DNA of 64,000 nucleotides. It comes from Takakia lepidozioides (lineage: Eukaryota; Plantae; Bryophyta). The first letter of the stretch is position 1. Every line of letters starts with the position of its first letter. Under the pieces are notes generated by a model that had not been told where the DNA came from, made no database searches, and was given only the letters and a program-made list of their open reading frames with translations. The DNA is taken from contig CM060734.1 of the NCBI GenBank assembly GCA_030704615.1, positions 4,650,001 to 4,714,000 on the forward strand, written 5' to 3'. The translations under genes and the position numbers were made by a program. Of the stretch, positions 15,490-47,129 are shown in pieces.

Positions 15490-16770
15490 GGCGCCAACAT
15501 GTTCATCCAAGTCCATCCCAAGATAGAAAAACGGCGCCAAATTTCCATGCGTGTGGGCTCTCATGGAGTCGAGTTGGGGGGAGAGGGCTCCACGTGGATG
15601 CCAGAGTTCATCCCCCGGATGGAAAAATGGCGCCGAATTTCCATCCGAGGGGGCTGGGATGAAGTCGTCTCGGGGGGAGAGGCCGACACGTGGCTGCCAC
15701 AGATCATCCCACGGATGGAAAAATGGCGCCAAATTTCCATCCGAGGGGGCTGGGATGAAGTCGTCTCGGGGGGAGAGGCCGACACGGGGCTGCCAGAGTT
15801 CATCCCACGGATGGAAAAATGGCGCCGAAGTTCCATCCGAGGGGGCTGGGATGAAGTCGTCTCGGGGGGAGAGGCCGAAAGGGGGTTGCCAAAGTTCATC
15901 CCCCGGATGGAAAAATGGCGCCGAAGTTCCATCCGAGGGGGCTGGGATGAAGTCGTCTCGGGGGGAGAGGCCGACAGGGGGTTGCCAGAGTTCATCCCCT
16001 GGATGGGAAAATGGCGCCGAATTTCCATCCAAGGGGGCTGGGATGAAGTCGTCTCGGGGGGAGAGGCCGACACGGGGCTGCCAGAGTTCATCCCCGGATG
16101 GAAAAATGGCGCCGAATTTCCATCCAAGGGGGCTGGGATGAAGTCGTCTTGGGGGGAGAGGCCTCCACGTGGATGCCAGAGTTCATCCCCCGGATGGAAA
16201 AATGGCGTTGAATTTCCATCCGAGGGGGCTGGGATGAAGTCGTCTCGGGGGGAGAGGCCGACATGGGGCTGCCAGAGTTCATCGCTAATGATCCAGGTAA
16301 GCAATTGAGATCCATTGCTTGCCCCAACACCTGACGATGGGATGATGGAAAAATGGCGCCGAATTTCCATCTGAGGGGGCTGGGATGAAGTCGTCTCGGG
16401 GGGAGAGGCCTCCACGTGGATGCCAGAGTTCATCCCCCGGATGGAAAAATGGCGTCGAATTTCCATCCGAGGGGGCTGGGATGAAGTCGTCTTGGGGGGG
16501 GAGGCCTCCATGTGGATGCCAGAGTTCATCCCCCGGATGGAAAAATGGCGCCGAATTTCCATCCGAGGGGGCTGGGATGAAGTGGTCTCGGGGGGAGAGG
16601 CCGACACGTGGCTGCCAGAGTCCATCCCCCGGATGGAAAAACGGCGCCGAATTTCCATCCGAGTGGTCTAGGATGAAGTCGTCTCGGTGGGGGAGGCCGA
16701 CACGTGGCTGCCACAGATCATCCCACGGATGGAAAAATGGCACCGAATTTCCATCCGAGTGGGCTCAGAT
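15490..16770. repeat. 96-bp tandem array of nested hairpin units inside the MULE
   Basis: Unit GGATGGAAAAATGGCGCCGAATTTCCATCC...GGATGAAG...TTCATCC recurs with a 96-bp period (e.g. 15617 and 15713), about 12-13 copies. Confidence 0.95.
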
Positions 16771-24330: not shown

Positions 24331-25147
24331 ATCCTGCAGGTAATTCCTTTGGACAGAATGTTGTTGGGGCCTATATGTACCTCTATTTGCTCCATTTTTT
24401 AACCTTCAGTGAATGGCGTGGTTTCCTGAGGTGGTTCCATTCTGAGGAATGGCTGGTCGACGTAAGGAGGCACTGGCGGACCCTGTGGAGGCTTGCATGG
24501 GGCCTTGGAGGCCAAGTTTCATGAGCTCGTGGAGGGCGGTTTGAGGAGTGTCTACAAGATGCTCTCATGGTCATGCAAGTGAGAGAAGTGAGGAAAAAGA
24601 GGGTGTTGGGATGAGAGCGTGTTGGGGATATGCATTGCTTTAGCTTCCCTTCCTCGTAGCTTTCCACCTTCTTTGTAGGCCGGGACCTTCCCGTAGGTGA
24701 AGGCAAGAGTCAGTCCAGGTTTGGGCTGGGTTGCAGGAGCGACACTATGGAGTTGTTTTTGGTGTGGGGGAGTTGTTGTTTTCATTCTTGTGTTTGGATC
24801 CCCTCCACACCTGCATGCTTGATTGTGCGCCATGCTAGCTTTGTGTGGGCGCTTGATTTTTATAGGTGGTTGACTCGGGCTTGATCGCCGATTCAACCCT
24901 AGAGCATGCTGTCGATGGTGAGGCTGGGTTGATGATCAGTCAGACCATCTTTGTTTCTCCTGTGGTGAGGTTGGAGGTGATGACCAGCCAACCATGGGAG
25001 TGCCTGCGGTGGATGCAGGTGTAGGTGCAGGCTATGTTAGGAACCTAGTATTCCAAACCATAAGCCGCATCAGGTTCTCTACCTGGATACCTTGTGGAGA
25101 GGGGGTTAGAGACAGGTTCATGACCGGTTGAGTGTCAGTTTGTCAAC

Positions 25148-27832
25148 ATGGAGGTGCCACTAGTTGCTGGGGAAATTGCCGGTACGAGCACTAGCAATAC
25201 TAGCGGGTATACGAGACGGGGTGTGCGGTTTAGGCCACCTTCACCTCCTGTGTCTTGTACAGAAGGTTCTGATTCGGATTGTGAATCAGGAGGACTCACA
25301 CCGGCGGTGCAAGTTGTTTCCTTGCCATTGTTGTGGGACATAATGGAGGAGATGTATGGAGCCACCAAGGGGCCACGTAGGTACTCTGGGGCGGTGGGCA
25401 CCATTGAATTGGATGATTTTATCCAAGAGTTTGATAGTTGGTGTGACTTGCAGCAAATGCGCAATCCACAACTGTTTACGCCTTTGATGGCATGGAAGGG
25501 GCTGTTTCAGCATCTTGAGGGGCCGCCCATGGATGATTACCATGAGTTTAGGCGGGGGCACGATGTTGAGATCGAGGAGTGGAGGATGTACTGGTCACCC
25601 AACTATGTCTCCATCACTAGAGGCACTAGAGGCACAAGGGCAGCAGCCACACCGGCAACTACACTAGCAGTTGCAGTTGCAACAGCAGCTTCCACAAGCA
25701 GTAATGGGACTAGTGGTACAGCAACTATGACGTCCACCCAAGCTACTGCTGCACCAGCACCAGTGGCCGTGTATGCCTTCAACCGTGTTGTAGAGTTCTT
25801 CGAAGAGTTGAGAAGGAACTACCAAGGGGTGAGGACAGAGAAGTTGAGGAGCTTGCAAGAGTTCCAGAGGAAGCCTACTAAGAGCTTGAGGGAGGCTTTC
25901 ACTCGCATGAGGCGCTTGATTAATGTAACCTAAGGGGTTACGGAAGCTCAAGGTCCAATTCTGGTACGGGATATTGGACAAAGAGCTGAGGAGAAGGGTG
26001 CGGAATACAACTCTCCTACAAGCGGCCCAACCCACCTTAGCAAATACGTTTTTGCTGGCAGAGCGGATAGAGCTCAACATGGTGGAGGAATGAGTGGTCA
26101 TGGTGGGATTTGGTAAGAAGGCACCACGAGATAGTGGTGCTCCTAGCCAGCCATTACCTCAACGTGCTCAAGGCAAAAATGAGGTTAAGATGAAGCGCAG
26201 GGAAGGCAGAGAGGACCTCAGATGCAGGGGTCTCTCCCTTCATTTGCAGGCCAACAATGGGCGGATGTGGTGTGCTGGACATGTGGAGGACCCCATCTCA
26301 AAAAGGATTGCCTAGAAAGAGGCAATGGTTTGGCACCGGCACAGCATGCACTGTTGCAGTATGGGCATTGTGGCAAGTACGGGCAAGGAGAAGCCCAGTG
26401 CTATGGTTTGCATCCTGAGTTGCACCCAGACCAGTTCCAAGGGAACAATGGTGGCCGGGGTCGAGGTGGAGCAGCCCAGAGAGGACGAGGTGGCCAGACA
26501 TGAGGTACAAGCCAAGGGCAAGCTCAACATGGCCAAGGACACGGAGGTCAGGGTGTTGACCAAGGCATGGTCAACCGGCTTCAGCAGCTAGAGCAGAGGC
26601 TCGATGCCATGGCCACAGCTCAGGTGGTACCGGCTCCAAGGCCGGATGGTCCACCTCCTGCTCCTGAGGGAGGAGATATGGGAGGCATGGGATTCATGTG
26701 CGGGGCAGCACTACCACTAGTGAGGGGTGCCACTACCACTACCACTATGGGTGGGGCACCACTACCATTAGTGATGGGTGCCACTACCACTACCACTGTG
26801 GGTGGGGCACCACTACCACTAGTGTCGGGCAGCACTACCACTACCACAATGTGCGGGGCAGGACTACCACCAGTGCAAGTGGAGTCAGCTGCGGCAGTGA
26901 CTCGAGGAGCAGCTGTGGCAGTTCCTAAGCCACGGGGTGCAGAGGTGGAGTTGGATCCACAGGGTGGGGAGGCAAGCCGTCAGGCCAGGCTTCCTCAGTC
27001 ATTCACATTGGCAGAGAAAGTGTCGACGCCGTCCATGGCACCTAGTTCTTGCTCGCCTGTTACCAAGGCGGAGGTTACTATGCCATTGGGGAGAGCTACA
27101 CGGGCAGCACCACTACCTAGTGTTGCCAAGGCTACGGCAGCTAGTGTGCTGCCGGGGGCGGCCACATCTGTGTGCCAGACACCATTATTCTCGGATACCA
27201 TGATTGTGACGCCGGGGGTAAGACCGGCTGAGGTGTTCAGGCTGGCAGCTACACTCTGTGAGAGTAGGGAGGTTACTTCATCTTCTGCGGATATAGTGAG
27301 AGGTGTAGTGCCGGAGGGATCCTCGGATTTGAGGATCAAGACTGCCACGGCGGCGCCATGGCAAGCTGCAACTGCCAGGTTGATGGAGCTGCCAGCTAGG
27401 CCAGCCATTGAGCGCGCCATGGTGACATCTGGAGTTGTCATGTTAGACAACCAGGATGACATTTTCTGTTTGAGTGGACCGGCAGACAAGATGTACAGGC
27501 CGCTGCGAGTCTTGTTGGACTCGGGAGCTCAGCCATTGATGCTGGGCAGCGCTACTATTGCAGGCTTGGGCCTCACGGAGGTGGATATGGAGCCGTGCCT
27601 TTTCAAGATACAGACATCTGTGGGAGGATCGGAGCAGGCTCGGGGCATCACACGGCGTGAGTTGGCTATCAGACTACAACTGGATCATCCTATAGATAGC
27701 TCAGTAATGAGAGCCAAGGCCATTGTGACAGACGCGGTCTCGTACGATGTCATTGTTGGTGGAGCAGTGTTGTACCCCATGGGCTTCACCCTGGATTTTT
27801 GGGAGGAGTCAGCTTCCTATAGGCCTGGATGA
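25148..27832 (+). pseudogene. Gag + aspartic protease of the DNMT retrotransposon (copy 1)
   Basis: ORFs 25148-25933, 26222-26503 and 26567-27832: retrotransposon gag helix region, CCHC knuckle, RG-rich tail, LLDSGA protease and DVIVG motif. A 48-bp tandem repeat (GGAPLPLVxGATTTTT) lies at about 26700-26880. Confidence 0.85.
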
Positions 27833-28228
27833 CAGTCAGGGGAGGGCCAGCGTGTGTAGCTCCCTGTGACGTTCATAGGAGGAGTTGCGGTTGCCCAGCG
27901 AGGTAAGATGCCGACACTAGCAGCATTCACAGCTGTAGTGAGTTGGCCTGGAGAGTTGCTTGAGGGCAACGCTCATTCAGAGGATGTGTCACCTCCGGAA
28001 GAGCAGGATGACATGTATGGTATGGTGGAGTTGTCTGACATGGTTGCTCACACTCCATTGTGGGGCTCGAGCAAGGATTTGCAGCGGGTTGCTGATTGTC
28101 GTGTGCAACAAGCCTGGGTAGAGGTTTTTGTACCATCAAGAGAGGAGGACAGTGCGGGGATTGCACCAGGACCACCTCAGTTGTCACCATTGGACACCAC
28201 ACTGATCGTGTGGCAGTGTCCGAATGAA

Positions 28229-29190
28229 GGCATTTGCCTTCTGGATTTGTTTGGCGGGATCAGTACCGGATTGGCTGCTGTTCTATAGGCAGGTGTACGA
28301 GTTCGGCGTTACTTGTATGTGGAGATGGATGAGACTGCACAACGCGTCTCCCTACGCCATGTTGCTCAGTTTGTGCAGCAGTACTCTGAGTTGTTGCCGG
28401 TGTCTGCAGTTCGTGGATATCAGCAGGCCTTGCCAGCAGACATTTCGTTCCTGGGGGCGCAGGATTTGGAGCGGATTGGCTCCATTGATCTGGTAGTGGC
28501 AGGTTGGCCCTGCCAAGGGCATTCATCAGCCGGGCATGACAATGGATTGCGAGACTCGAGGTCGGGTCTGTTTTGGGAGATGGTGCGGGTTTTGCGCCAC
28601 TTACAGCTTCATCAAGCTGTATCTCCAGCATACATCTTGGAGAATGTGCCACTGATGGGCGATTCTTAGGCCAGGGTGATGACCAGTGTGCATTAAGTCC
28701 GGTCGTGGCTTGGGTCAGCAGTGTTGCTGGATGCAGCTGCAGCGGAGTCACGGGCTCATCGTCCACGGCTATGGTGGACTAATTTGATGTCACCCGCACT
28801 GCTCAAGCATGCATTTGATGGGGTGCAGCGGCCAGCACACCTCACAGTGGATAGCATTTTGGACATAGGGAGGCAGTCTCAGCGTGTGAGACACGATGAC
28901 CATTTGCCTTTGGCAATGGTCAACAAGGTGGGTCAACCACGAGCAGCACTACCTACACTGCTCAGCTTCCCAGGATCGCATGCTTTCCGGGATAGTGGAC
29001 CTGGCCTCCTGTGGGATGTTCAGTTGCAGCAATTAGTGGAGCCTAATGCCGACGAGCAAGAGCGGGCTATGGGTTTTTCCACTGGGACCACAGCGGTGTC
29101 GTCTCTTTCTGAGGCATCACGTCGTCAGGTATTGGGGCAAGCGATGGATCTCAATTGCTTGACCTGGATTATCAACTTGGCTATGGCTGA
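28229..29190 (+). pseudogene. C5 cytosine DNA methyltransferase domain (copy 1)
   Basis: Motifs in canonical order in one reading frame with three stops: I LLDLFGGI, II YLYVEMD, IV AGWPCQGHS, V RSGLF, VI ILENV, VIII AHRPRLWW, IX-X ERAMGF...LGQAMD. Confidence 0.92.
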
Positions 29191-30344
29191 GCAACGTAGA
29201 GTGCGGAGTGCATTTCCCTTGACGGTCTCTCTGCCTACCGAGACGATACAGGCAGTGAGTGGGGGCGAGCCGGTGAGGACCACGGGGTGTAGACATCCAT
29301 GGCACACGTGGGAGGTGCTCGAGGTTCAGAGGGAATTGACAGCCAAGGCGGCTGTGATGGATGAGGTTGGCGATTCTGCTTGGGTTGAGGAGGTCCTCAA
29401 GGATGAGATAATGGGGCAAGATGAGGCCTTGTCATTGACTGAGCAGTCAGGGAGTACTACTCAAGAGGTTGAAGCATAGCAACCACGGGACGCGTCCTCT
29501 ACCTCTAAGTCTGCTGGACTTAAGGTTGCAGTTACGGAGGACAATTGGGAGCCTGACATTGGACCCAGTTATGCGGCTTCCAGCATCCCACGGCTACTCC
29601 CCCGCCAAAATTTGGACCAATCAAAAATGCCCCCCCCCCAACTTTTTTCTTTTTTCTTTGTTGCCCCCTTTCTCCCTCTCTTTCCCTCTGCTGTACTAAC
29701 AGCCTGCACAATGTTCACTCTGTCCTGACCGAAGGAGGGGAGCATAGCTTCTGGCATGTTGTAGAGTAGGTCACTTTGGAGAGCTGAAAGTTAAGAATTA
29801 CGAGGCTGAATGAGGTGTTGAATACTATGATCTTCAATGCCTTTGTGTTCTGCCAGGTGGGCTACTCTAACTGTTCTGCCAGTTTGTTTTGTATTTTATA
29901 CAAATAGAGAGGGTAAGGAGGTAATAGTAGTGGAAGGAAAGCCTTGGGAAGTTTTCTTTGCCTATAGGGCAAGCCATGGCCTTTCGGGTAAGCATGATGG
30001 ACTGGATGACTGTGGAGAGTAGGTGCTTAGAGTGTAAGGATAGTGCTTAGACGGGGAAGAGGCGCTAATTTATGCCAACTGGAGTTGGCATCCGCTTTCT
30101 TCATGTTCTGTTGAGGGGCTAGGTGTTTGATGTGTTGGTCATTATGATGCACAATTTAACTCTGGGAGTTTTTCTTCAGCTGTAAATTGTATTTTTGGAA
30201 AGAATTGAGCTCTGTTGCTTGTTGACAAGTAGTTTAGGCTTGGTTATTCAGCAAATTGTGCACTTCAGAAAGAGTCGAGCTCCACTTGTATTCATTCATA
30301 CTTAAGGTAACAAAATTTCTTACTGTCTCTTTCCTTGGTTCCAG

Positions 30345-31069: not shown

Positions 31070-33067
31070 CTGCCATAGCCATTCCTCACATGTCAGATCA
31101 GACTTTCAGCCACCTTTCATTGCAACCAAAGCAGAGTTTTGACCCTTAAGCTAGGGTGATTGCAGATTGGGTTTGGGTTCATGCTGTCCACTTTTGTGAG
31201 CAAAGCTTCATCTGCTACAACCATTGGGTTCTTTGTCTTTATCATTGGCTTACTCACACAGGTCTGTTGAACACATCAAAATCAATTTTTTGGCAAGTTC
31301 AGATCATCAATGTCTATTGCTAGGATGCTGCAAGTGGAAGTTATACATGTTTAAATTGTGACAAACCTACGGATTTTTGGTGTCTGTGAACTTGCATACT
31401 TTGCTCTTGCACCACAGTGAGGATTTAATATGAAATTTTTGTCTGACAGACAATCTAAACATCAGTGTAGAAGCTAAGCATAGTGGGTTACCTGGCAGCT
31501 GGTCACTACATTTGGGTTTCCTTATTCCAAGTCCTTCTCCGTTGGCATTCACTCTGTGTGGTCTATATTCCCACCCAATCTACTTGTGCTAGGCCTTCCG
31601 TATTTTGGGGATGCCACAACCACTAAACAAGACTGAGGCATCAGCTGGTCCGGTCAAAATATATGTTCAACGTACGACAGTGATTGTGTTTTGACTATGG
31701 TGAGTTTCTCTCCTCTTGTGTGGTGCGAATTCAATCAGAATGGGTGGATTTACTTGGTGTGCTTCAATTGAGTAAACTTGTGATTCTTTCAAGCCTACTA
31801 TCACCATGCTGAATGTCTGTTGTAGGACTTTATGCAGATTCTGTTTTAATACTAAATGAACATTAGGGTGAAAAAATTCTTGATGTCATAAAGAAGATGA
31901 CACAAATTTCACACATCTTCAATTGGAGTGATTATGCAATGTGAGGAGTGTCAAAATGATGTCGAGGTGATGTACACTAATATGACATGTAATTTGTCAT
32001 TTATTCATGTAGATTGAGTTACAAATTCCACACGACATTTGCATTTAACCTTCGTACAAGTATCGTATGAGGCCAATGTACACGGATTTCGCACGTTACC
32101 GATGTTGAAATCGGACACAACACCCTCGTGCATTAAGCACACGGAAATAGGGTTTGTCAATAAGTTGCGGAATCCGTGCGATTAAGGAACAAACCCTTGA
32201 AAATCCGGATTTCGCACAGCAAAGATAAAAAATCCGTGGCTCGGCTTTGAGATGCTCTCCATCTCTCTCCCTCTCTTTTGTGCTGCTCATATAAAAAAAC
32301 AAACCTGAGAGGGAGAGAGGGGGCAAAAAAAAAAAAAAAATAGAGGGAGAGGGAGAGGGAGAGAGTGGGAGAGAGTGGGAGAGGGATCCATAACCATATT
32401 TTGTTCTCTTTTTTGCACTCCAAAGTTGAGTTATCTTCAACTTCATGCACTCTTCATAAAGAGTTCTTCAAAAGTGACCCTAGAAACGCATGTTTTTTTT
32501 TTTTCCATTTTTTTTTGTCCAATGTTTTGCATGGATGTAGTGGTGCAAACCCCGATGTCACATAAACAAAATAGAGCCAAAAATAAAATCATTACGCTCC
32601 TCAAAACCGCAATCTTATATATTCTAAATGCAAATATTCATTTTAAATTCATTTAAATTCGATTTAATTCAAAATTGGTTCAAGGGTGAGTGCGTCGTTA
32701 GGGAGGCAAATGTTTTTTTTGTTTTTTTTTGTTGAATCTTTGCACTGGTGTTGCACACATATTCAAACACATGTGGGCAAAAGTTAAGCTTGAGCCACAT
32801 CCGTTTAATGGGTGCAATGGCATGAGAGGATTTTCTTTCACAATAAACAAAATTGGTTGACATGGTGAACGCGTCCTTGGGGGGCAAATGATTTTGATTA
32901 GGTTTGAAATTTTGCATGCGTGACATTGCGCACATACATGTAATTATTGAATGACATATTTGATGCATGCACACATTGAAGGTTGTTGTTTGCATTTCGC
33001 TTAAACAAGTTGTATTGCTGCAAGGACACATTATAATATATGCCCGTATGTTCATTTGTTCATATCA

Positions 33068-35315
33068 GGATTTTGTTGTTCCCTTCCCGGTCCTTCCTCT
33101 TGGCACCCCATCCAAAAACAACCCAAGTACATCAAGTGGGAGCCGTGGGCAAGAAGCCGCGCCCACCGTTGATGAAGTACCGAACGATGATGATAATGAC
33201 AGTGACAGTGACAGTGACAGTGACAGTGACGACAACAATGAGGATGGAATTAACCAGGAGGATGTGCAAGCCATGGAGGATCTCTTAATGCATCATGTGG
33301 GTGCTGATGCCTCCCATGGAGAGGGAACCCGGCCAATCGATGATCCTGAAATGGCCCCCTCAAATGACATGGAGAGGGAGGCGAGAGTTCCCTTGTACGA
33401 AGGGGCGAAAGTGAGTCGAATTTCAACAATCTTACTTTTACTCAATCTTCAAATTCGACTTGGCATAAGTAATGTTGGGATGTCTGCCATAATGCGAACT
33501 ATTGCGGACTATATCCTTGCTCCACACTTGAAACCCAAGATGTTACGGTCGCGGAAAGAGGCGCGCGAAGTCTTGGACTCTGTGGGGATGGGCTATAAGA
33601 TTTTTCATGCATGTCCATGTGATAAAACCCTATACTACGGAGATGGTTTGCGTCTCACCAAGTGCCCAAAGTGCAAGAAAGATCGATATCGGGATGATGT
33701 CCAAGGGAAAAAAGTACCACGCAAGATATAAGTGTCATTCCCCCTCGCATGGAAATTATTTTCTTTAATCTTCTCAATGCATGTAGAGTGTATTCCACAA
33801 AGTTTAGGGTTTAGAGAGTAGTACTCATGCAAGATCTGATTGTGGCTTTGGAAGGAGTGAGTAATATTAGCGACGTTCGATTTTGACCATTCTTTTCCTA
33901 ATGAGGGAGAGGGTGCATAAAGGGAAAGACATAAGGGTGTTGTATTATGTGTGCTAATGGGAGACTACATGTGGGGGACGTGGGGTATTTCATCCTAGAA
34001 AATGCATTACTTTCCGATGATCCCACGATTGAAGGCACACTACCAAAGCCCCTCATTGGCAACACTGAAGAGATGCCACGCCTCGCATCGGAGCCCCCCT
34101 CGGGAAAGGTGTGCGGGCCACAAGATTCACAAGCATGGAGACATACTAAAGAGATGTGGCCTTTTTCTCTTGAAGGACCCACGACATGTCCACCTCGGCT
34201 TCTCCTCGGATGGGGTCAACCCATACTCTGTCCAGTCATGTACATAGTCATTCCACTTGGCCGGTGACCATGGTGAATTACAACATCCCTCCGTATCTTT
34301 CAATAAAAAAAAGACCATATCATGTTGGCTGCCATTGTACCAGGTGAGTGTTCCCATTTCATTCATATTATTCCCTTGGACTTTACATTAATCTTTTGAT
34401 CTCTGGCGCAATTCGGATGCAAGATTGATGAGTGACATAATCATGGAGTAAGACGTGTAATTCATTATGTAGTATAATTTGCTTATTGGTGGAGCATTGA
34501 AACAATGATGTGAATGTCTCACAGGAAACAAGTGGCAAACATGGACACGTACTTGCGACCTCTAGTTGATGAACTTAAGGAGCTATGGAGGGGGGGTCCC
34601 GGCATTGGATGCTTCACTTGACCCTATGGCCGGACAATCTTTTCAGATCAGAGGCATCTTGCTTTGCACAATGCATGATTATCCAGGTATATTATGTTTT
34701 CTATGAAGAACCCTCGTACATTCACTTGTTAAGGCCGGATAATATTGATGAGGATTGGGATTGATAGAAGTAACGGCGACAGTCTTGTGCACCGTAGTGG
34801 GGTAGATGGCATTATGGGCCATGCACATGACAACTTTTTGTCTTTGCTAATGTGGTGGGATGTGTATATGACTAACTGTTTGCTCGGGGCTAAGCACCAA
34901 AGGGTACCATGCATGATTGCATTGTGGCGATGATCTTGATGCACATAGCTCCCGCCATCTTCAGAAGATGGTGTATCCCAACTACCGCAAGTTTCTTCCT
35001 ATGAGCCATCGATGGAGAAGAAGAGAGAAACACTTGTTTGATGGCAAAGATGAAGTACGTCCCCCCCCTGTGACACCATCCGGGCAGTTTTGGGAGGACC
35101 GATGGAAGGAGGCCCATGCGGACACGGTCGGTGAAGTGGACGTGCCCGACATGAAGCGACTTTCAATCTTCTACGAGTTGGCATAATGGACGGTACATAT
35201 TCCACAAAAACACCATCAATATCCTTATGCATGCATGTGATATTGCACATTTTGTATGAGTTACATTCACGTCCAAATATTTGTGTAAGTATTTATGGAT
35301 GGGGGTATATGTAGG
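33068..35315 (+). pseudogene. CACTA/En-Spm TnpD-like transposase, 5' part
   Basis: PLYEGA...HACPCDKTLY...CPKCKKDRY, YFPMIPRLK, LGFSSDGVNPY, TWPV..NYNIPP, YLRPLVDELKELW, TMHDYPG, RKFLP..HRWR and SIFYEL: Transposase_21-type motifs over several exons. Confidence 0.9.
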
Positions 35316-35986
35316 TGTCGTGCGCATACATATCGCTACACAACTATATCGCTGTCCAAACCACACAACACATGTGCATGCCACACACTAGTATACCACT
35401 AGTCCAACCACTAGGCTACAACTAGTCAGTCACTAGGCTGCCCACTATGGCAGTCACTAGTCCACACAATGATAAAGAAGAAGAATACAAGCACAAACTC
35501 ATGCGAGCTCACAAAGCTGAAGCTTAAACTCATGCATATATAAACTCATCACTCAAATACAAGTCAAGCCAAGTGCACCCCACGCCATGGGGAATCCACA
35601 CTACGGCGCCATAGCTAGGCGCGGTGAGGCTCAACTCGAGAAAGATGAGTCTCCCGCGTTTGCCGTGAAGATAACCACTCCAGGGCCTAAATCTGCCTTG
35701 ACCCCTGGATTGACACTTGGGCCAATCCCAAATGTCAATATGTAAAAGCTAGCTATTTCCTAGCTAGTTTCACACTAGTGGTAAAATAACTTGACAGCTG
35801 TCGTGCGCATACATATCGCTACACAACTACATCGTTGTTCAAAACCACACAACACATGTGCACGCCACACACTAGTATACCACTAGTCCGCCACTAGTCC
35901 AGCCACTAGTCCAACCACTAGGCTACAACTAGTCAGTCACTAGGCTGCCACTATGCTGCCCACTATGGCAGTCACTAGTCCACACA
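35316..35986 (-). repeat. 3' terminal repeat block Y-X-Y (35799-35986 Y, 35470-35796 X, 35316-35468 Y)
   Basis: 35316-35468 and 35799-35986 are direct repeats. 35470-35796 matches 45937-46263. A polypurine tract (TAGGGGGGCGAT on minus, 35987-35998) abuts the inner Y. Confidence 0.92.
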
Positions 35987-36242
35987 ATCGCCCCCCTAGT
36001 TGGTGCTTAGGTCCCTCTAAGTCTAGGTAGCCACAAGATGTGATAGTGACCATAGCCTCACTAAGTCCTCCACCATTGTCCCTACTACACTCAAACTCGA
36101 TAGATCAAGAGGCCGGGTACAAGAGTTGCCCCATCGTTAGTCGCCGTCTTGCAACCTGTGAACTTGAGCCTGAGATCTCGTTTATTGACTCCTATGAGCT
36201 CGGCCTCCTATGTCTTGTTAGCTGCCTCTAGTCATGTCCACT

Positions 36243-37560
36243 GCCACTATCCCAAGCAGTGTGGACATAATCAATCTCCATCAGGAACCCTCTCAAGAGG
36301 TGGTGTCAAGCATCCCATATGCCAACCTCTTGAGCATCGATCACACACCAGCATGGTGGCTGCCCCTTTGGCAGACCCACAGAGCATGCACCTCAAACCT
36401 GCAGGTACCATTGCCAAGTTTGGGTCAACTCTGCCATCGACATTGAGAAGGTGACATGGCGCACAATTACGCATATGGTCTTTCCAAGTCATGCCATCCC
36501 GACCCTCCAAGATCAGGACTCCTGAGGGCAACACCTCTCGAACCCTCAGAATAACACACCCTGCAGTAATATCCAGGGTTGTAGGAGCAGTCTGCTGCAA
36601 ATAAACATAGTCACCCGGGCTAAACCTCCGAACCCCAGGACGATATCCTCCACCACGTATAGTGGCATACCTCAACGTATCACGGTGCTGTGCAATGGCA
36701 AGGTTCTCAAAAGCCATGGGCATGACTTTCTTGAACAACTCTGCACGCTGATCACATACACGTACCCACACGTCCGGATCGTCAAGGTTAAGGACTTGAG
36801 CAGTGCCCCTACGAATGGCTGCAGGCAAATCCGGCTCTCGGCCAAAGAGAAAGAAATATGGTGAGAATGAGGCAAGTGATGCTTGTTTGTTGAACCTGTA
36901 GCCTATGGCTAACCAAGGCACCTGAAGATCCCAATCTCCTAGATGTCCCTTCTGCAAGCCATACTTGCGCAAACCCCTCTTCACCGTCTGAACAACTCGC
37001 TCTGCCAAGCCATCGGCCTCAGGATAATCCCGAGAAGTGGTGCGGTGGTCTATCAAGGCTTTATCACACAAAGCCTAAAACTCCCCCAAGAACTCTCTCC
37101 CTTGGTCCGTGAGTACCTCAGCTGGAGCACCGAATTGGCTAAGCACACGATCCAAGAATGCATACGCAGCCCCCTCACTAGCCTTGTCAGGCAATAGAAC
37201 CAACTCAATCCACTTGGAGAAGTGCTCCACCATCACCAACACATATCTGTGGTGGCGCATAGTCAATGGCAACGGTCCTGCAAAGTCAAGACTCCACCTG
37301 TAGCCCAATCCCATGATTGGTAAAGGATGCAACTGTGGTATAGAGGCGTTGAATGAAGCATGCACCCTATCACACACCATGCACCTAGCCACAAACTGTT
37401 GCACCTCTGTATGCATACCACGCCACCAATACTGCCCCTGCAGTAACTGTGAGTGCGTCGCACTCCAAAATGCCCAACTCCTCATGGGCATGCCGCACTA
37501 ACCATGCACGCTGTGTGTGGGGTGAGGCACAATCCTCACCCGACCATCATCCCATACTCG
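36243..37560 (-). pseudogene. Integrase (HHCC + DDE core) with C-terminal PHD finger
   Basis: YWWRGM..VQQFVARCMVC, WSLDFAGP, LTDQGREF, DGLAER; then CMLC...LVCDRCSRGWHMGCLTPPLERVPDGD*LCPHC (C4HC3 PHD, about 36256-36390). Confidence 0.92.
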
Positions 37561-37879
37561 GAGCAGGTGTATCCCCTCCTACTTGAACCTCTTGGCTCGT
37601 TGTAGGATCCGATCCCTCTCCTTGGCAGTCACAGTGGCTACCGTGTCTCTAGTACGGAGGTAGTCCAACACAACCGAATCCTCATGTATATCTCCACCTG
37701 GCTCATCACTAGCCTCAGGGTCCTCAGACACTCCGTCTATAGTCATCCCTGTTGTAGGTCCAACCTGACCTCCCGATGTCAAGATACACAAAAAGGCAGA
37801 TGCATGCCATTCCGGCACCATCTCCTCATCCGTCTCACCATGCCACCGAGCTCCAGTGTTATCCTGCTGGCTCGTGCAT

Positions 37880-39240
37880 GGATTGCGACTCAATCCATCC
37901 GCATCTCGATTGACCAAACCCGGTCAATGCACAACCTGAAAGTCATACTCCTGGAGTATGAGTGCCCACCGTGCAAGCTTCCCCGTAAGCTTGTCTGACT
38001 CCATCAACCACTTGAGTGGCTGGTGATCCGTGACAAGGGTGAAGAGATTGTCGTATAGATAGCACCTGAAGTGTGCCACGGCCCACACTGCAGCTAAGCA
38101 CTCTCGCTCATATGAGCTGTACTTAGCCTCTACAGCGTTGTTCGAGCGGCTAGCATAAGCCACTACGAACTCTCTTCCCTCATCATCCACCTGTGTGAGC
38201 ACCGCTCCAAGCCCCAGCATGCTCCAATCCGTATGCAGCTGAAAGGGACGCCCCCTGATAGGTCGTCTCAGGATGGCTCTTGAAAAGCTCGTTCCTGCTC
38301 ATCTTCCCACTGCCACTCCTGGTCCACCTTGGTCAGCTCGGTTAGAGCCTTTGCAATGGCACTAAATCCCTTGACAAACCATCTATAATAGTTTGCCAAC
38401 CCCATGAAAGCTCGAACTCGGCTCACATCCGTGGGGCATGGAATTTGTGCAATGGCCTCTATCTTAGTCTGCTATACCTCCAATCCTCCAGGATATATCT
38501 TGTGACCCAGATACTCAATCTGGTTGTGGAAAAACTTGCACTTCCCCGGATGCAACTTCAATCCGCGCGCTCTCAAGCGCTCCAATACCACCTGAAGGTG
38601 TCTGTCATGCTCCTCCATCGTAGCACTAAAGATGATGATGTCATTTATGTAGCACCGAGCAAAGTCCACCCCTGCTAGAATCCTATCCATGACTCTCTGA
38701 AACTCTACAGGAGCATTCTTAAGCCCAAATGGTAAGAACCGCCACTGATATAGGCAATCCTTCCGTGCTCATTGATCCCCCAGAATGTCGTCTTCTGCTT
38801 ATCCGCCTCCTTGATCGGCAACTGGTGATATCTGGATTGTAAATCCAAAGTGCTAAAGACCTTAGCATGCCCGATGGCATCAAAGATCTCCTCTGGTGTT
38901 GGCATGGCATACTTATCGGACTTGGTCTGACGATTTACAGGCCGGTAATCACCGCACATACGTCTCTCCGTCCAATTGCCATAGACATCCTTCTTGGCTG
39001 GCATCACTATGGCTGAAGCATACTCTTCACCAGAGTGCTCCACCAAACCAGCCTCCTAGAGATCTTGAGTCCTCATCTGAATCAAAGACCTCTCCATGTC
39101 ACTATATCTATAGGGTCTTCGAAAGATTGGCGTGTCAGTGGCCAACTCAATACGAGTCTCTTGACCCTTTAGTGCTCCCAAGTCCTTCAAACTGAAGGCA
39201 AAGCAATTCTTGTAAGCCCTCAGGAACCGCCGTATACGTC
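37880..39240 (-). pseudogene. Reverse transcriptase + RNase H (gypsy type)
   Basis: RRMCGDYRPVN, FSTLDL...YHQ, YINDIIIFS (YxDD degenerate), LHTDWS..GLGAVL, YASRS, ECLAAVWAV, TDHQPL, LARWALILQEYDF. Confidence 0.93.
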
Positions 39241-39639
39241 GTCTCTCTCCTCCGGTGACAATGGGTCCAATGTCAAGCTCCCAATTGTCCTCCGTAACTT
39301 AAGTCCAGTGGGCTTAGAAGTAGAGGACGCGTCCAGTGGTTGCTATGTTGCAACCTCTTGAGCAGTACTCCCTGCCTGCTCAGTCAATGACAAAGCCTCA
39401 TCCTGCCTCATCATCTCATCCACAAGGGCTTCCTCAACCCGAGAAAAATCCCCAACCTCATCCATCACCGCCGCCCTGGCTGCCAACTCCCTCTGAACCT
39501 CGAGCACCTCCCACGTGTGCCATGGATGCCTACACCCCATGGTCCTCTCATGCTCGCCCCCACTCACTGCCTGTACCATCTCGGTAGGCAGAGAGACCAT
39601 CGAGGGAAGTGTACTCCGCACTCTGCGTTGCTCAGCCAT

Positions 39640-40600
39640 AGCCAAACTGATAATCCAGGTCGAGCAATTGAGATCCATTGCTTGCCCCAACACCTGACGA
39701 CATGATGCCTCAGAAAGAGACGACACCGTCGTGGTACCAGTGGTAAGACCCATTGCCCACTCACGCTTGTCAGCATTAAGCTCCACTAACTGCTGCAACT
39801 GAGCATCCCACAGAAGGCCAGGTCCACTATCCCGGAAAGCATGCAATCTTGGGAAGCTGAGCAGTGTAGGTAATGCTGCTCGTGGTTGACCCACCTTGTT
39901 GACCACTACCGAAGGCGAATGGTCATCGTGTCTCACACGCTGAGACTGCCTCCCTATGTCCAAAATGCTATCCACTGTGAGGTGTGCTAGGCGCTGCACC
40001 CCATCAAATGCACGCTTGAGCAGGGCAGGTGGCATCAAGTTAGTCCACCATAGCGTGGGGACGATGAGCCCGTGACCCCACTGTAGCTGCATCTAGCAAC
40101 AATGTTGACCCAAGCCACGACCAGACTTGATGCACACTGGCCATCACCCTGGCCTGAGAATCGCCCATCAGTGGCACATTCTCCCAGATGTATGCTGGAG
40201 ATACAGCTTGATGAAGCTGCAAGTGGCACAAAACCCGCACCATCTCCCAAAACAGACCCGACCTTGAGTCTCGCAATCCATTGCCATGCCGCTGATGAAT
40301 GCCCTTGGCAGGGCCAACCTGCCACTACTAGATCAATGGAGCCAACCCGCTCCAAATCCTGCGCCCCCAGCAACGAAATGTCTGCTGGCGGCAAGGCCTG
40401 CTGATATCCACGAACTGCAGACACCGACAACAACTCAGGGTACTGCTGCACCAACTGAGCAACATTGCGAAGTGAAACGTGTCGGGCAATCTCATCCCTC
40501 TCCACATATAGGTAACGCCGAACTCGTACACCTACCAGTAACACAGCAGCCAATCCAGTGCTGATCCCGCCAAACAAGTCCAGAAGACAAATGCCTTCAT
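39640..40600 (-). pseudogene. C5 cytosine DNA methyltransferase domain (copy 2), between protease and RT
   Basis: GICLLDLFGGISTG, YLYVERD, AGWPCQGHS, RSGLFWE, IWENV, AHRP and LGQAMDLN across ORFs 40035-40763, 40040-40276 and 39343-40092. Confidence 0.92.
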
Positions 40601-40999
40601 CCGGATACTGCCACACGATCGGTGTGGTGTCCAATGGTGACAACTGAGGTGGTCTTCGTGCAATCCCCGCACTGTCCTCCTCTCCTGACGGTACAAAAGC
40701 CTCTACACAGGCTTGTGGAACCGTAATCAGCAACCCGCTGAAATCCTTGCTCGAGCCCCACAATGGAGTTGAGCAACCATGGCAGGCAACTCCGCCATAC
40801 CATGCATGTCATCTTGCTCTCCCGGAGGTGACACATCCTCTGAATGAGTGTTGTCATCCAACAACTCTCCAGGCCAAGTCACTGCAGCTGTGAATGCTGC
40901 GAGTGTCGGCATCTTGCGTCTAGCCCGCTGGGCAAACGGCAATACTCCTATGAACATCACAGGGAGCTCACACACAGCTGGCATGGCCCTCCCCGACTG

Positions 41000-43490
41000 C
41001 ATCCAGGCATATAGTGAAGCTGAGTCCTCCCAAAAAATCCAGGGTGAAGCCCAGGGGTAAAGCATTGCCCCACCAACCAGGACATCGTCGAGACCGCGTC
41101 TGTCACAATGGCCTTGGCTCGCATCACTGAGCCATCTGTAGTGTGATCTCGGCAGTAGTATGAAGCCAACTCATGCCGTGTCATGCCCTGAGCCTGCTCC
41201 AATCCTCCCAGAGACGTCTGATCGGAAAGGACAGGCTCCATATCCGCCTTCGTGAGGCCCAAGCCTGCAATAGCAGCTCTGCCAAACTCAATGGCTGAGC
41301 TCCTGAGTCCAACAAGACCCGCAGTGGCCGGTACCTCTTGCCTGCCGGTCCATTTAAACAGAAAATGTCATCCGGGTTGTCTAACATGACAACTCCAGGT
41401 GTCACATGGCGCGCTCAATGGCTGGCCTAGCTGGCAGCTCCATCAACCTAGGAGCTTGCAGCGGCCATGGCGCTTGTCGTGGCAGTCTTGATCTCAAATC
41501 CAAGGACCTACGGCACTACACCTCCCACTTCTCCGCAGAAGATGAAGTAACCTCCCCACTCTCACAGAGTGTAGCTGCCAGCCTGAATCCTCAGCCGGTC
41601 TACCCTCGGCGTCGCAATCATGGTAGCCGAGAATAATGGAGCCTGACACACAGATGTGGCCGCTCCCAGCAGACACACTAGCTGCCGTAGCCTTGAAAAC
41701 ACTAGGTAGGGTGCTGCCCATGTAGCTTCCCCAATGGCATAGTAAACCTCCGCCTCGGTAACAGTTCGGGCGAAGAATTAGGTGCCATGGATGGCGTCGA
41801 CACTGTCTCCACCAATGTGAATGACTGAGGAAGCCTAGCTGACGGCTTGCCTCCCCACGTTGTGGATCCAACTCCACCTTTGCACCTCGTGGCTCAGGAA
41901 CTCGGGCTGCTCCTCGAGTCACGGCTGCAGCAGACTCCACCTGCACTAGTGGTAGTGACTGCTGCCAGATGAATCCAGCCTCCCATATCTCCTCCCTCAT
42001 GAGCAGGAGGAAGTGTTTGTGGGTGTGAGGGGGGAGTTGCTAATAATGAGTGTTGGGTGGTTGAGGGAGGGCCCGTGCGTGTGGCTGGTGTGGAGGATGG
42101 GATTGTTGTGTGGACCATAAGGAATTGGAGACGGTACCACCTGAGCTGTAGCCATGGCAGCAAGCCTCTGCTCTGTTGCTGAGCCGGTTGACCATGCCTT
42201 GGTCAACACGGACCTCCGTCTTGGCCATGTTGAGCTTGTCCTTGCCTGACACCCCGTGCCTGGCACCTCACTATGGGCTGCTCCCACCTCACCCCCGGCC
42301 ACCATTGTTCCCTTGGAACTGGCCTGGGCCAACTCAGGAGGCAAACCATAACACTGGGCCTCTCCATGCGTGCTTGCCACAATGCCCACACATGCAACTG
42401 TGCAGGCTGTGCCATATGCCAGCCCTTTGCCTCCCTCTGGGCAATCCTTCTTGACATGGGGTCCTCCACATGTCCAACACACCACCTCCGCCCGTTGTGG
42501 CCTGCAAATGAAGGGAGAGACCCCTGCATCTGAGGTCCTCTCTGTCCTTCCCTTACTTCACTTGGACCCTCTTGTTGACTTGAGCACGTTGAGGTAGTGG
42601 TTGGCTAGGAGCACCACTACCCCGTGGTGTCTCCTTAGCAAAATCCCACCATGACCACTCATTCCCATTCCTTGTCCAATATCCCATACCAGAATTGGAC
42701 TGCCTGAGCTTCCGTAACCCCTTGGGTTACATTTATCAAGCGCCTCATGCGAGTGAAAGCCTCCCTCAAGCTCTCAGTAGGCTTCCGTTGGAACTCTTGC
42801 AAGCTCCGCAACTTCTCTGTCCTCACCCCTTGGTAGTTCCCTCTCAACTCTTCGAAGAACTCCACAACAGGGTTGAAGGCAGGCACGGGTACTAGTGCTG
42901 GTGCGGTAGTGGCTTGGGTGGACGTCGTAGCTACTGTACCACCAGTCCCACTGCTGCTTGCTGAAGCTGCCGGTGCAGCGGCAGGTGTAGCCAATGCCCT
43001 CGTGGCTCTAGTGCCCCTAGTGATGGAGACATAGTCGGGTGACCAGTACATCCTCCACTCCTCGATCTCAACCTCATGCCCCCGCCTGAACTCATGGTAA
43101 TCATCCATAGGCGGCCCCTCAAGGTGCTGAAACAGCCCCTTCCATGCCATGAAGGCGTAAATAGTTGTGGATTGCGCATTTGCTGCAAATCACACCAACT
43201 ATCAAACTCTTGGATAAAATCATCCAACTCGATGGTGCCCACCGCCCCAGAGTACCTTCGTGGCCCCTTGGTAGCTCCATACATCTCCTCCATTGTGTCC
43301 CACAACAATGGCAAGAAACAACTTGCACCGCCGGTGTGAGTCCTCCTGATTCACAATCCGAATCAGAACCTTCCGTAGAAGACACAGGAGGTGAAGGTGG
43401 CCTAAACCGCACACCTCGTCTCGTGTACCCACTAGTATCGCTAGTGCTCAACCGGCACTGTCCCCAGCAACTAGTGGCACCTCCGTGTTG
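41000..43490 (-). pseudogene. Gag + protease (copy 2), heavily frameshifted
   Basis: Pieces homologous to copy 1: FIQEFDSWCD, CWTCGGPHVKKDC, VLLDSGAQ. Confidence 0.88.
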
Positions 43491-44189
43491 ACAACTGTCA
43501 CTCAACCGGTCATGAACATGTCCCTAACCCCCTCTCCACAAGGTAACCGGGTAGAGAACCTGTTGCGGCTTATGGTTTGGAATACTAGGTTCCTAACATA
43601 GCCTACACCTGCACCTGCATCCACCGCAAGCACTCCTATGGTTGGCTGGTCATCACCTCCAACCTCACCCAAGGAGAAACAATGATGGTCTGACTGGTCA
43701 TCACCCCAGCCTCACCATCGACAGCATGCTCTAGGACTGGCCGGTGATCAAATCCGGACCAATCACCTATAAAAACAAGCGCCCACACAAACTAACATGG
43801 CGCACAGTCAAGCATGCAGGTATGGAGGGGATCCAAACACAAGAAATCAGAACGACAACTCCCCCACACCAAAAACAACTCCACGGTGTTGCTCCTGCAA
43901 GGACACCCCAGCCCAAACCCGGACTGACTCTTGCCTCCACCTACGGAAAGGTCTTGGCCTAATGAGAGGGTGGAAACTACGAGGAAGAGAAGCTAAAGCA
44001 ATGCCTAACCCCAACATGCCCTCATCCCAACACTCTTCCTCTCCTCTCTTCCCTCACTTGCATGACCATGGGAATATCATGAAGATACTCCTCAAACCGC
44101 CCTCCACGAGCGTCAAAATTGGCCTTCAAGACCACATGCCAGTCCTTAGGCAGTCCACCAGTGCCTCCACGAGTCAGCACAGGCCGTCC

Positions 44190-44470
44190 ACAGGTCAACA
44201 CGGGCCACCACAGACCAGCACAGGCCCACACAGATCACTGTCACAGCCGTCACAGCCCACAGCCGTCACAACCCCAAAGCCACAGTCACAGCCTGTCAAA
44301 GCCCTACACAGGTCACAGGATCACAGCCCCACAGGCCACAGGGCACAGCCCATCACAGCCTATCACAGCCCGCCACAGCCCCACAGGCCACAGGGCACAG
44401 CCTGTCACAGCCCCCACAGCCGTTCAAAGCCCCTCACAGCCCATCACAGCCTGTCACAGCCCATCCATGG
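44190..44470. repeat. CACAGCC-type simple repeat in the 5' leader of the DNMT element
   Basis: Dense recurrence of CACAGCC/CACAGG heptamers. Confidence 0.8.
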
Positions 44471-45936
44471 CCACTCATGGCAGTTTAGCCACCGAGCTAT
44501 GGCGGCTGTGAGGAAATCAAACAAGGTATTCTTGCTCTTTATGCCCCACACCACCACCAATAGTAGCTCTAATTCCAAATGAAGATGTTTGCAACCGAAC
44601 TAAGTGCACAAGCTCCTTTAACTCACAAAACAGCACCATTGATCCCTATGGCGACTACCAACATGGCTGACTTCCAGCCCTTGTAGCACTCATTCACGTG
44701 CTTTTCTTGACCATAGCATGCCCTTCGCACCTAACCAGCCCCTGCACCTACTGCCTTCAAGAGTTGTGCTCCCTTCAAGCTTGAAGTTGAAACCCCAACT
44801 CACATAGGCCCTACAAGTGCTTTTATTTCACCCCAAGTGGAAACCAGCCCTAGCCCTTCCGTTCTAGCTCTCTAAAGCTTGAAACAAGAGCCTCAATGGG
44901 CTGAAGGCATGCTCCCATATGCCCCACTCTCACCATAAGAGAATCAGCTCCTTTGCTTCATTTCTTGCACCCACAAACCTGAAAATACAAGCTGCAGCGG
45001 GCTGAAAGCATGCTCCACACATGCCCTACAGGGGAACCAGCCCCTTCTTTCCTTTCTTGCACTCCAAACCTGACAGTACAAGCCTTCAACAGGCTGAAAG
45101 CATGCTCCACACATGCATTGCCCTCACATAATGGAAGTCAGCCCTTCCCTCTCCTTGCTTGCCCTCCAAGCTTGAAGATGGAAGCTTCAATGAGCTATTC
45201 ACATGCTCCACACATGCAACCTCTTCACACAAGAGGTATCAGCCCCCTATCTTGGCTCCTTGGCTCCTTGATGCTCTCTAAGACAAGACTAAGCACACTC
45301 CACAGCCTTTGCCAAGCTCCTGAAACCCTAAGGCTTACATTTCCAGCGACAAGACACTCCTCTTGTGGTGCAAGAGCTCTTTTTCCAAGCTCTGAAACCC
45401 TAGGTGCACATTTCATGGCCTCGCCGCACCTCTTAGCTCATGTTCCATCCAGCCCTGCTCTGCCATGACAAGAGCCCTCTCAATGCTGAAGCTCGAGATT
45501 GAAACCCAATCTCAACATACTCCACAAAGTGCACTGATTCGCCCCAAGCCGAATCAGCCCTTTCGCTTGGTCTTGCAATCCTTCACACAATGAAAGCTCG
45601 CATTCCCCAGTCCAGTTCTCAGCTTTGCCACAAAGCCACTCTAATTTGCTCTTGACTGGTCCTCTTCCTCCAATCGTGCTTACTCATGCATGTACACAAT
45701 CTGAAACCATCAAGGTGCTCTGGAATTACCTGCAGCATGGTGCTTTCATCTCTGAAGCTGAAGATCGAATGCCAAGGTCTACTACCTCGTAACCCACATC
45801 GCCTCCGCTTCTAACAACCAAGAGCTCCACGGTGCTCCTTGCATAACAACCTGGTTTCCTCTCATTCTCAGCAAAACCACAAGTGCTACAATAACTCGTA
45901 TCTGGCACTTACAGATACGAGCTCATCTTTCTCGAG

Positions 45937-46263
45937 TGATAAAGAAGAAGAATACAAGCACAAGCTCATGCGAGCTCACAAAGCTGAAGCTTAAACTCAT
46001 GCATATATAAACTCATCACTCAAATACAAGTCAAGCCAAGTGCACCCCACGCCATGGGGAATCCACACACGACGGCGCCATAGCTAGGCGCGGTGAGGCT
46101 CACTCGAGAAAGATGAGCCTCCCGCGCTTGCCGTGAAGATAACCACCCAGGGCCTAAATCTGCCTTGACCCCTGGATTGACACTTGGGCCAATCCCAAAT
46201 GTCAATATGTAAAAGCTAGCTATTTCCTAGCTAGTTTCACACTAGTGGTAAAATAACTTGACA
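45937..46263 (-). repeat. 5' terminal repeat X (327 bp)
   Basis: Near-identical to 35470-35796 (about 7 differences by eye). Reads TGTCAAG...TTATCA on the minus strand. Confidence 0.95.
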
Positions 46264-46267
46264 TAGG

Positions 46268-47129
46268 ACCTGAAGATTTGCCATCTTCTAGATCCCATGC
46301 ATATGAGAAGAATGTCTGCTCGTCCTTTTTTTGGGTTCTTCATGGCACGCCGACAAAGAAGGGAGTGGCTGCAAAAGGAGATTCTCTCGGTGAGGAGCAG
46401 GGTCGCATGTGCCATCTATGGGCCGAACAAAATGGTGTGGACCCAAAGGGTGTTGTACGGTGGAAGTATAGGCGCGCACCTTGGCAATGGACAAAGGAGG
46501 AATACAAGAAAGTAATTGCCACCATAGGTGCTATCCGAACACCAACCGGGTATGGATCATCCCTCCGTACAAAATTCAGCGAAGACACTATCCATGGTTT
46601 GAAGTCTCACGACTACCATAATAGTCTCGCAAATCTCGGGAGTCAATGTCCCACGTACTGCAATGGGCAAGATGTCTTGCATCAGATTGGGAGGCTCGTT
46701 CCAGTGGATTTGCTCCAAAGAGTTGGAGGAAGCGGATTTTCCACGTATAAAGAAGGAGGCAGCGGAGGTAATGTGTATGTTGGAGATGAACCTTCCTCCC
46801 TCCTTCTTTGACATCCAAGTGCACTTGGTAGTGCACTTAGTGGAAGAGGCTTCGATTGCCAGCCCCGTTCATTCTCGGTGGATGTACTTCCTTGAGCGTT
46901 ATATGAAGACTTTGAAAGGATTTGTAAGACAAATGGCGCACCCGGAGGATAGCATGGCGGAGGGGTATACGTTGCAAGAAGCTATATTCTATTGCACATA
47001 GTACATGGCAAGGGTAGATGAGGAAGCCCCTCGGATGTGGAAGGAAGAGAAGGATGCACGAACCAAGGACATCGTTTTGCCCAAAAAATCGAAGAGGGTA
47101 AAATTGCCGACCTTGGTGATTGAGCAAAC
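46268..47129 (+). pseudogene. CACTA transposase, 3' part (DUF4218-like region)
   Basis: LDPMH..EKNVC, GLKSHDYH, LEMNLPPSFFDIQVHLVVHLVEE...RWMYFLERYMKTLKGFVR...PEDSMAEGY. Confidence 0.92.

Follow-up and report, generated by a model that had tools for sequence, protein, structure and literature searches.

Split direct repeats on a Ty3/Gypsy element of Takakia lepidozioides with integrated ends at a palindrome inside the LTR

In the available text of two reviews, split direct repeats are linked to recombinase-encoding elements that lack target site duplications (TSDs) (PMC4157794, PMC8969392). Repeats of the DIRS type are defined as A-coding-B-A-B in PMC5890265, and the legend of Fig. 4c of the same paper (de Mendoza, 2018) assigns DIRS-type repeats together with Gypsy domains to KnitGypsy-Dnmt3 from Klebsormidium nitens. 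Retroviral circles with two LTRs have been considered a possible reserve for integration (PMC1905944, PMC4372172, PMC1180852). The palindromic 2-LTR junction of HIV-1 is cut by its integrase after CA on both strands, and 52–58% of the host-ligated junctions are exact according to the same account (PMC1905944). Among bacteria, a DDE transposase is described that can integrate both ends from a single junction substrate (PMC7780238).

The analyzed window, that is, the whole stretch of 64 kb from Takakia lepidozioides, contains a decayed Ty3/Gypsy element, hereafter copy A, in which all coding domains are broken. Copy A occupies positions 35316–46263 on the minus strand, and its parts are arranged in the order X-internal-Y-GC-X-Y within a 4-bp duplication. 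The repeats, ends, and priming sites are listed below.

46264–46267, plus strand: TSD at the 5' (X) end, TAGG (CCTA on the coding strand, 46267–46264)
46263–45938, minus strand: X1, the 5' repeat, 326 nt; begins with TGTCAAG, the integrated 5' end
46102–46114, minus strand: predicted self-primer, 13-nt core in X1; 19-bp duplex in copy A
45925–45937, minus strand: primer-binding position directly after X1; not of the tRNA-type TGG, complementary to a stretch within X
35998–35989, minus strand: polypurine tract (PPT) TAGGGGGGCG; at the same place and nearly the same in sequence in the relatives L013 and L014
35988–35799, minus strand: Y1, the first Y copy, directly 3' of the PPT, 190 nt; ends with CACGACA
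35798–35797, minus strand: GC spacer between Y1 and X2
35793–35802, no strand: palindrome GACA-GC-TGTC at the join of Y1 and X2, the putative integrase attachment site
35796–35471, minus strand: X2, the second X copy, 326 nt; abuts Y2
35470–35316, minus strand: Y2, the terminal Y copy, 155 nt; ends with CACGACA, the integrated 3' end
35312–35315, plus strand: TSD at the 3' (Y) end, TAGG (CCTA on the coding strand, 35315–35312)

This split-repeat layout had been proposed in a preliminary description of the locus, and all its parts were confirmed in place, with boundaries refined by 1–2 nt. The single nucleotide previously placed between X and Y turned out to be absent: Y1 and Y2 both begin with ATTG, the Y1 copy immediately follows the PPT, and, with the 13-bp primer core and the PPT taken as boundaries, X2 and Y2 abut at 35471/35470 with no base gained or lost. 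We infer that this abutment represents the end-to-end junction of the cDNA. Copy A does not carry two complete LTRs; its 5' end consists of X alone, and its 3' end of Y-GC-X-Y. Comparison of X1 with X2 gave 321 matches, 4 substitutions, and 3 indels, while that of Y1 with Y2 gave 150 matches, 4 substitutions, and 4 indels; the two pairs did not differ in their rate of substitution (Fisher p 0.28). Relative to Y2, Y1 contains extra tandem units of 11 and 23 nt. The palindrome GACAGCTGTC occurred only once in the window. In this one copy, the termini TGTC...GACA are of the TG...CA type and are accompanied by the TSD TAGG, so that the predicted 4-bp duplication was indeed found; its length lies within the 4–6 bp of Ty3/Gypsy elements.

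The 19 nt following X1 pair perfectly with a stretch located 146 nt into X, with shuffled sequences reaching at most 11 (n = 60); the fold z value was −5.2. The 13-bp core of this duplex is kept in copies A and C (see below) and in L013, where two pairs are compensatory. A tRNA primer was rejected, as the site lacks the initial TGG, whereas TGG is present at the primer sites of two ordinary control elements (L016 and L017). The sequence thus predicts self-priming similar to that of Tf1. Since the PPT abuts Y and the predicted self-priming duplex abuts X, the LTR defined by reverse transcription (RT) is Y-GC-X. The alternative of an LTR composed of X and Y with ordinary replication was rejected because the primer site lies behind X, and the PPT ahead of Y. 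No conserved CA is found at the RT-defined right end, where X terminates in TC, TT, TC, and TC in four elements; the GACA and TGTC of the internal palindrome show no variation. The earlier claim that the integrated ends lie inside the RT-defined LTR, at its internal palindrome, was borne out, and the layout is common to the family and to a distant relative. A hairpin resembling the U5-leader structures of self-priming elements is located directly after the primer site, at 45924–45899 (minus strand) in copy A and at 47461–47487 (plus strand) in copy C; the letters of the stem differ between the two.

The insertion site of copy A and the other copies in the window are described by the following features.

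32964–47129, plus strand: host CACTA transposase gene carrying copies A and C; Pfam Transposase_21 on the left and DUF4218 on the right
47130–47509, plus strand: copy C, an independent 5' end, about 82–86% identical; comprises CACTA flank, X, primer-binding position, and leader
24466–29567, plus strand: copy B, an internal fragment from gag-protease-DNMT to the start of RT, about 88% identical, without ends

The TAGG duplication is located at the AG of an intron, and the next exon, DLKICHLLDPMH, continues the left exon FYELA*WT. Removal of copy A produces an empty site in which the end of the CACTA intron and the following exon are restored. With the left and right flanks derived from a single CACTA transposase gene that has a restorable intron-exon boundary, the TSD is backed by more than a 1-in-256 match; copy A is the only example of a TSD with both ends. 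The third copy had been said to start at X as well, and this held true: at 47130, TGTCAAG stands directly after CACTA sequence and is followed by X and then by the leader. The 3' end of copy C was not found within the 64-kb window.

Several further features of the surroundings were observed. Copies A and C stand head to head, 866 bp apart (46264–47129), in one CACTA transposase gene, and the insertion of copy A is situated exactly at an intron-exon boundary of that gene. A 54-bp piece of the DNMT region of the element, 93% identical to 39700–39647, is embedded at 16285–16337 in a 96-bp tandem array extending over about 15.4–17.5 kb; an array of a 94-bp repeat lies at 8.5–9.5 kb. A repeat at least 3 kb long occurs at both 9.7–14.8 kb and 61–64 kb, the two copies being about 90% identical; its scanned frames gave no Pfam match. 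Fragments of gag, RT, RNase H, and integrase from unrelated Ty3/Gypsy elements of the ordinary kind occupy 53229–61114.

The coding content of copy A is as follows.

41167–43350, minus strand: gag and aspartic protease, broken; gag under the Pfam cut-off
39616–40640, minus strand: C5-cytosine methyltransferase (DNMT3-like), frameshifted; PF00145 in copy B with E 2.7e-13
39337–39345, minus strand: TAG CAA CCA between the DNMT frame and RT, likely a read-through stop
37927–39289, minus strand: reverse transcriptase and RNase H in frameshifted pieces; Pfam RVT_1 and RT_RNaseH, tblastn with the L013 pol
36256–37497, minus strand: integrase (H2C2 zinc finger, rve core, D-34-E) followed by a PHD finger, broken by stops; Pfam rve, Integrase_H2C2, and PHD

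The order of the domains is gag-protease-DNMT followed by RT-RNaseH-integrase-PHD, with the DDE (rve) integrase by which a Ty3/Gypsy element is recognized. The best PDB matches of the integrase, with the intact L013 protein as the query, were those of Ty3 and foamy virus. The assignment to DDE-integrase elements made in the preliminary description was upheld by the Pfam rve match and by the scanned frames, in which no match to a tyrosine recombinase was obtained with Pfam; in addition, the intact L013 has no further frame longer than 163 aa on either strand that could hold a recombinase. No Pfam match to a chromodomain was detected after the integrase, and a PHD finger is present there instead. 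The PF00145 domain was identified in copy B and L013, with 49% and 36% identity, respectively, to the K. nitens protein P0078, which, judging by its domains and species, corresponds to the published KnitGypsy-Dnmt3.

The gag-protease-DNMT frame stops at TAG followed by CAA CCA or CAA TCA in copy A (39345–39337, minus strand), copy B (29477–29485, plus strand), and L013 (3489–3497), and RT resumes in the same frame past the TAG in copy B and L013. UAG-CAR-YYA is a read-through signal. The TAG after the DNMT frame is therefore likely, from its sequence context, to be a read-through stop, which would explain why many of the relatives in the databases start at RT and lack the DNMT.

A set of 90 protein relatives was obtained, the named ones belonging to Marchantia, Calypogeia, Riccia, Klebsormidium, and Haematococcus. 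The proteins closest to copy A were those of liverworts (78–88%), and the identity with K. nitens was 49–55% in the integrase region. On the integrase tree, for which 91 of 100 sequences were kept and 9 short ones were excluded, copy A grouped with the liverwort proteins (SH 0.989), and this clade joined Klebsormidium and L013/L014 (SH 0.998); L015 was external to the clade formed by copy A, Klebsormidium, and L013/L014, and was located inside the PHD-integrase group. The spacing between the second D and the E of the integrase core (37110–36990 in the window) was 34 residues in 74 of the 77 matched sequences, with 23 of the 100 sequences, L015 included, remaining unmatched; the usual spacing of 35 was found in 3 of the 77, all three being ordinary Gypsy controls. 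This D-34-E spacing is a mark of the clade and may bear on the cutting of the palindrome. In L015 (3061–9516), the DNMT-like match lies between RNase H and the integrase, not ahead of RT, and a weak Tudor-like match follows the PHD finger. Copy A falls into the KnitGypsy-Dnmt3 (PHD-integrase) group; by its enzymes it belongs to Ty3/Gypsy and not to PAT/Ngaro.

The genome scan yielded five loci, comprising three relatives (L013, L014, and L015) and the two ordinary two-LTR controls. The relatives originate from eukaryotic contaminant contigs in bacterial genome bins (GTDB), L014 and L015 being single contigs. L014, from another organism, has 67–81% protein identity to copy A. Its end is composed of the PPT at 2300–2310, Y1 at 2311–2416, GC, X at 2419–2778, and Y2 at 2779–2884, followed by 21 nt of other DNA; Y2 is 100% identical to Y1, and, on the face of it, X and Y2 abut exactly here too. 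The palindrome of L014 is identical to that of copy A, and the same palindrome was found at the same place in L013 (7051–7060). In L015, whose identity is 40–49%, a G-run is followed some 110 nt later by CACGACAGCTG, with which the contig ends before any X is reached; the chance of such an end in 300 nt is about 7e-5. Outside the Y end and the primer motif, neither repeat of L014 could be aligned with its counterpart in the window (best E 0.12–0.74), so the palindrome has been selectively kept. Both controls possess two full LTRs and TGG primer sites and are devoid of the palindrome. In bin G001, two of the four palindrome sites belong to elements and two are unrelated, while the seven one-mismatch sites in bin G002 correspond to the control level. 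Taken together, we consider it highly probable that the ends are placed at the internal palindrome across the family.

Further searches were also carried out. In the 401 genomes searched, only the already known bins were recovered. All 12 matches to a 19-nt Y-end pattern in the metagenome scan belonged to one unrelated gene family without similarity to the element, and three protein scans and one motif scan of viral contigs provided no usable locus. The loop assembly of L013 (127-nt overlap in gag) was taken as a collapse of the X repeats and not as evidence of a circle. GTDB bacterial bins were found to contain eukaryotic retrotransposon contigs (L013–L017 and L024–L034), with 13 pol-profile matches in bin G001.

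The element was present in six public sequencing runs from three studies, with high depth along its length. The Y2-X2 stretch was compared with the contigs of runs X1, X4, X5, and X6 (three studies), of which X1 and X4 possibly represent the sample of the window itself. The X/Y junction was crossed by 12 of the 32 listed pieces, in all four runs. Two of these pieces, both from run X1, extend over at least 31 letters on both sides and have 9 and 4 differences to copy A, which indicates that they are other copies. Indels at a level of 10% or more near the junction were absent among those listed. In run X5, the depth of the junction piece was 113 against 150–342 for the internal pieces, depth here not being a copy number. 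As a rough sign, the X/Y junction is common.

The loose ends of the contigs, of which 23 of 87 entries were listed, gave a similar account of both sides. Before Y, the listed loose ends match the PPT (10 contigs in X1 with an agreement of 0.94, one in X5, and one in X6), and after X, the listed entry matches the primer site and leader (6 contigs in X4, agreement 1.0). After Y, they are a mixture of GC-X and other sequence (47 contigs in X1, agreement 0.46; two contigs in X6 that are unlike X), and the loose ends at 35316, the terminus of Y2, are diverse. Varied sequence before Y or after X, as expected of ordinary two-LTR copies, was not seen among the 23 listed entries. The short contigs fit X-internal-Y-GC-X-Y, X-Y-GC-X-internal-Y, or solo X-Y alike, because these share their junctions. 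None of the contigs on the Y2-X2 stretch covered the 26 nt of flank beyond the Y2 end of copy A, and the insertion site of copy A itself was consequently not confirmed by the runs. On the whole element, the contigs were mostly internal variants, with no end entry among those listed. Two outcomes had been named in advance as speaking against the proposed layout, namely a predominance of copies with two complete LTRs and an artefact or one-off event; neither was encountered in the available contigs and relatives.

Circular permutation of [Y-GC-X]-internal-[Y-GC-X] gives the inserted form, with the ends joined and the molecule opened at the palindrome before the primer site. Integration via a 2-LTR circle that is opened by the element's own DDE integrase at the LTR-internal palindrome is, in our judgment, somewhat better than an even proposition. 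Transcription would start about 145–150 nt into X1, as is suggested by priming of the Tf1 type, and the RNA would prime itself. Standard LTR replication would then produce a blunt linear cDNA, [Y-GC-X]-internal-[Y-GC-X], whose ends would contain no integrase sites. Joining of these ends by host ligase or by an end-to-end jump of RT would generate the 2-LTR circle, and the integrase would nick after CA on each strand of one GACA-GC-TGTC. Given the 2-base spacer, a single staggered cut would produce a pair of CA-3'OH ends, each with a 5' overhang of 2 nt, which is the ordinary 3'-processed geometry, and concerted strand transfer would create the 4-bp TSD. If the palindrome ahead of the primer site is the one opened, the outcome would be the observed layout, which can replicate again because the 3' copy of R is retained. 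A 1-LTR circle was rejected, since it would yield X-internal-Y without a second X.

Both the circle and its cleavage are deduced from the inserted form, and a linear over-run product cut at two palindromes would result in the same insertion. A closed circle has two identical palindromes, and about half of the insertions would be expected to be X-Y-GC-X-internal-Y; all three informative ends (copy A, the 5' end of copy C, and the 3' end of L014) fit the other layout, for which the chance is 1 in 8 if the choice is random. This hints at an asymmetric, perhaps linear, intermediate. In addition, plain host end-joining fits less well because the junction looks uniform, compared with the 52–58% exact junctions of HIV-1 (PMC1905944). 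Both the exact X/Y junction and the three ends of one layout would be accounted for if RT jumped again from the right end of the cDNA to the left end and recopied Y-GC, after which the integrase would cut a linear or nicked molecule at its first and its third palindrome without any closed circle. The primer site and Y of L013 both start with CTTGA, which is possible microhomology for such a jump; however, the two ends in the family of the window share at most 1 nt, and the integrase would have to skip a middle palindrome identical to the outer two. We regard this course of events as unlikely. Copying in the manner of PAT/Ngaro, in which the RNA runs through Y2, the X/Y junction is copied from RNA, the internal Y-GC-X templates the attachment site on a circle, and the DDE integrase acts only at the last step, would make the junction uniform, and it agrees with the A1-B1-A2-B2 layout described for PAT and Ngaro (PMC4157794, PMC8969392) and with the two tandem-unit indels by which Y1 differs from Y2. 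However, the conserved PPT exactly before Y1 and the primer duplex exactly after X1 are those of ordinary LTR priming, and the divergence of Y1 and Y2 is no greater than that of X1 and X2 (p 0.28), with identical Y copies in L014, as if both pairs were remade in each cycle; such copying appears decidedly unlikely.

A one-off rearrangement or an assembly artefact of an ordinary LTR element (a tandem LTR piece, autointegration, or unequal recombination) might be suspected in view of the age and broken state of copy A, which is the single complete copy that can be read. This reading is largely refuted and very improbable: the junction occurs in diverged contigs from three studies, L014 has the same 3' layout, the relative from Klebsormidium is described likewise in the figure legend of PMC5890265, and the TSD is clean in a restorable host gene. 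Integration through a 2-LTR circle opened at the internal palindrome remains the reading that we prefer.

If this is true, a retroviral-type integrase acts like a bacterial circle-integrating transposase. In retroviral replication, 2-LTR circles count as dead ends or as a reserve of minor importance (PMC1905944, PMC4372172); if every insertion of a high-copy element marks an end-joined intermediate, the question of the circle as a normal substrate can be tested naturally, at a defined 10-bp site. The route also offers a simple origin of split direct repeats. The chances are about equal for and against a broader proposition, according to which the attachment site has moved from the cDNA ends to an LTR-internal palindrome in a whole green-plant Ty3/Gypsy clade (chlorophyte-like relatives, Klebsormidium, and liverworts), so that integration proceeds only via the end-joined circle and split direct repeats exist without a tyrosine recombinase. 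A conserved internal attachment palindrome in distant relatives is surprising, and circle-based integration is directly testable. Programs for finding LTR elements require two full LTRs; the clade, which has its own DNA methyltransferase and PHD finger, is for this reason probably under-annotated in bryophyte and algal genomes.

Among the known systems compared, the closest is KnitGypsy-Dnmt3, in which, as in copy A, a DNMT3-like domain precedes RT within a Gypsy pol and the repeats are A-coding-B-A-B; a PHD finger such as that of copy A is not mentioned in the available text of PMC5890265. The preliminary statement that the split layout is atypical of rve-integrase elements was thus overstated, as the legend on KnitGypsy-Dnmt3 already reports it. 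The ends, TSD, palindrome, priming sites, and mechanism of KnitGypsy-Dnmt3 were not found in the available text of PMC5890265, in the preprint 10.64898/2026.05.21.726589 from the same laboratory, or in the open literature, with Repbase, theses, subscription journals, and the main supplement of PMC5890265 lying outside the scope of the search. The layout itself has therefore appeared in print once, and the ends, TSD, palindrome, priming sites, and mechanism are new as far as could be found in these sources.

PAT, Ngaro, and TOC1 have the same A1-internal-B1-A2-B2 layout as copy A (PMC4157794, PMC8969392). However, they are described as using a tyrosine recombinase and as having no TSD (PMC8969392), whereas copy A combines an rve integrase and TG...CA ends with a 4-bp TSD, a PPT, and a primer duplex. 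In Tf1/Sushi, Tj1, and Tcn1, as in copy A, the primer site is complementary to a stretch in the element's own 5' repeat and not to a tRNA (PMC6317226, PMC4600332); Tf1/Sushi and Tcn1 differ in possessing two full LTRs and a chromodomain, in place of the PHD finger, DNMT, and split repeats of copy A. The palindrome of HIV-1 is formed where the two ends meet; its CA and TG are four bases apart, the overhangs are 4 bases long, and it is reported to serve a minor route (PMC1905944), whereas that of copy A is internal to the LTR, with a spacer of 2 bases, and would provide the sole route. The copy-out/paste-in elements ISCth4 and IS911 share with the proposed route a DDE enzyme that takes both ends from one junction of abutted ends on a circle; their circle arises from a figure-eight made by the transposase and from DNA replication (PMC7780238), whereas that of the proposed element would arise from reverse transcription. 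In its mode of action, the element probably resembles a circle-integrating transposon of bacteria that is supplied by reverse transcription.
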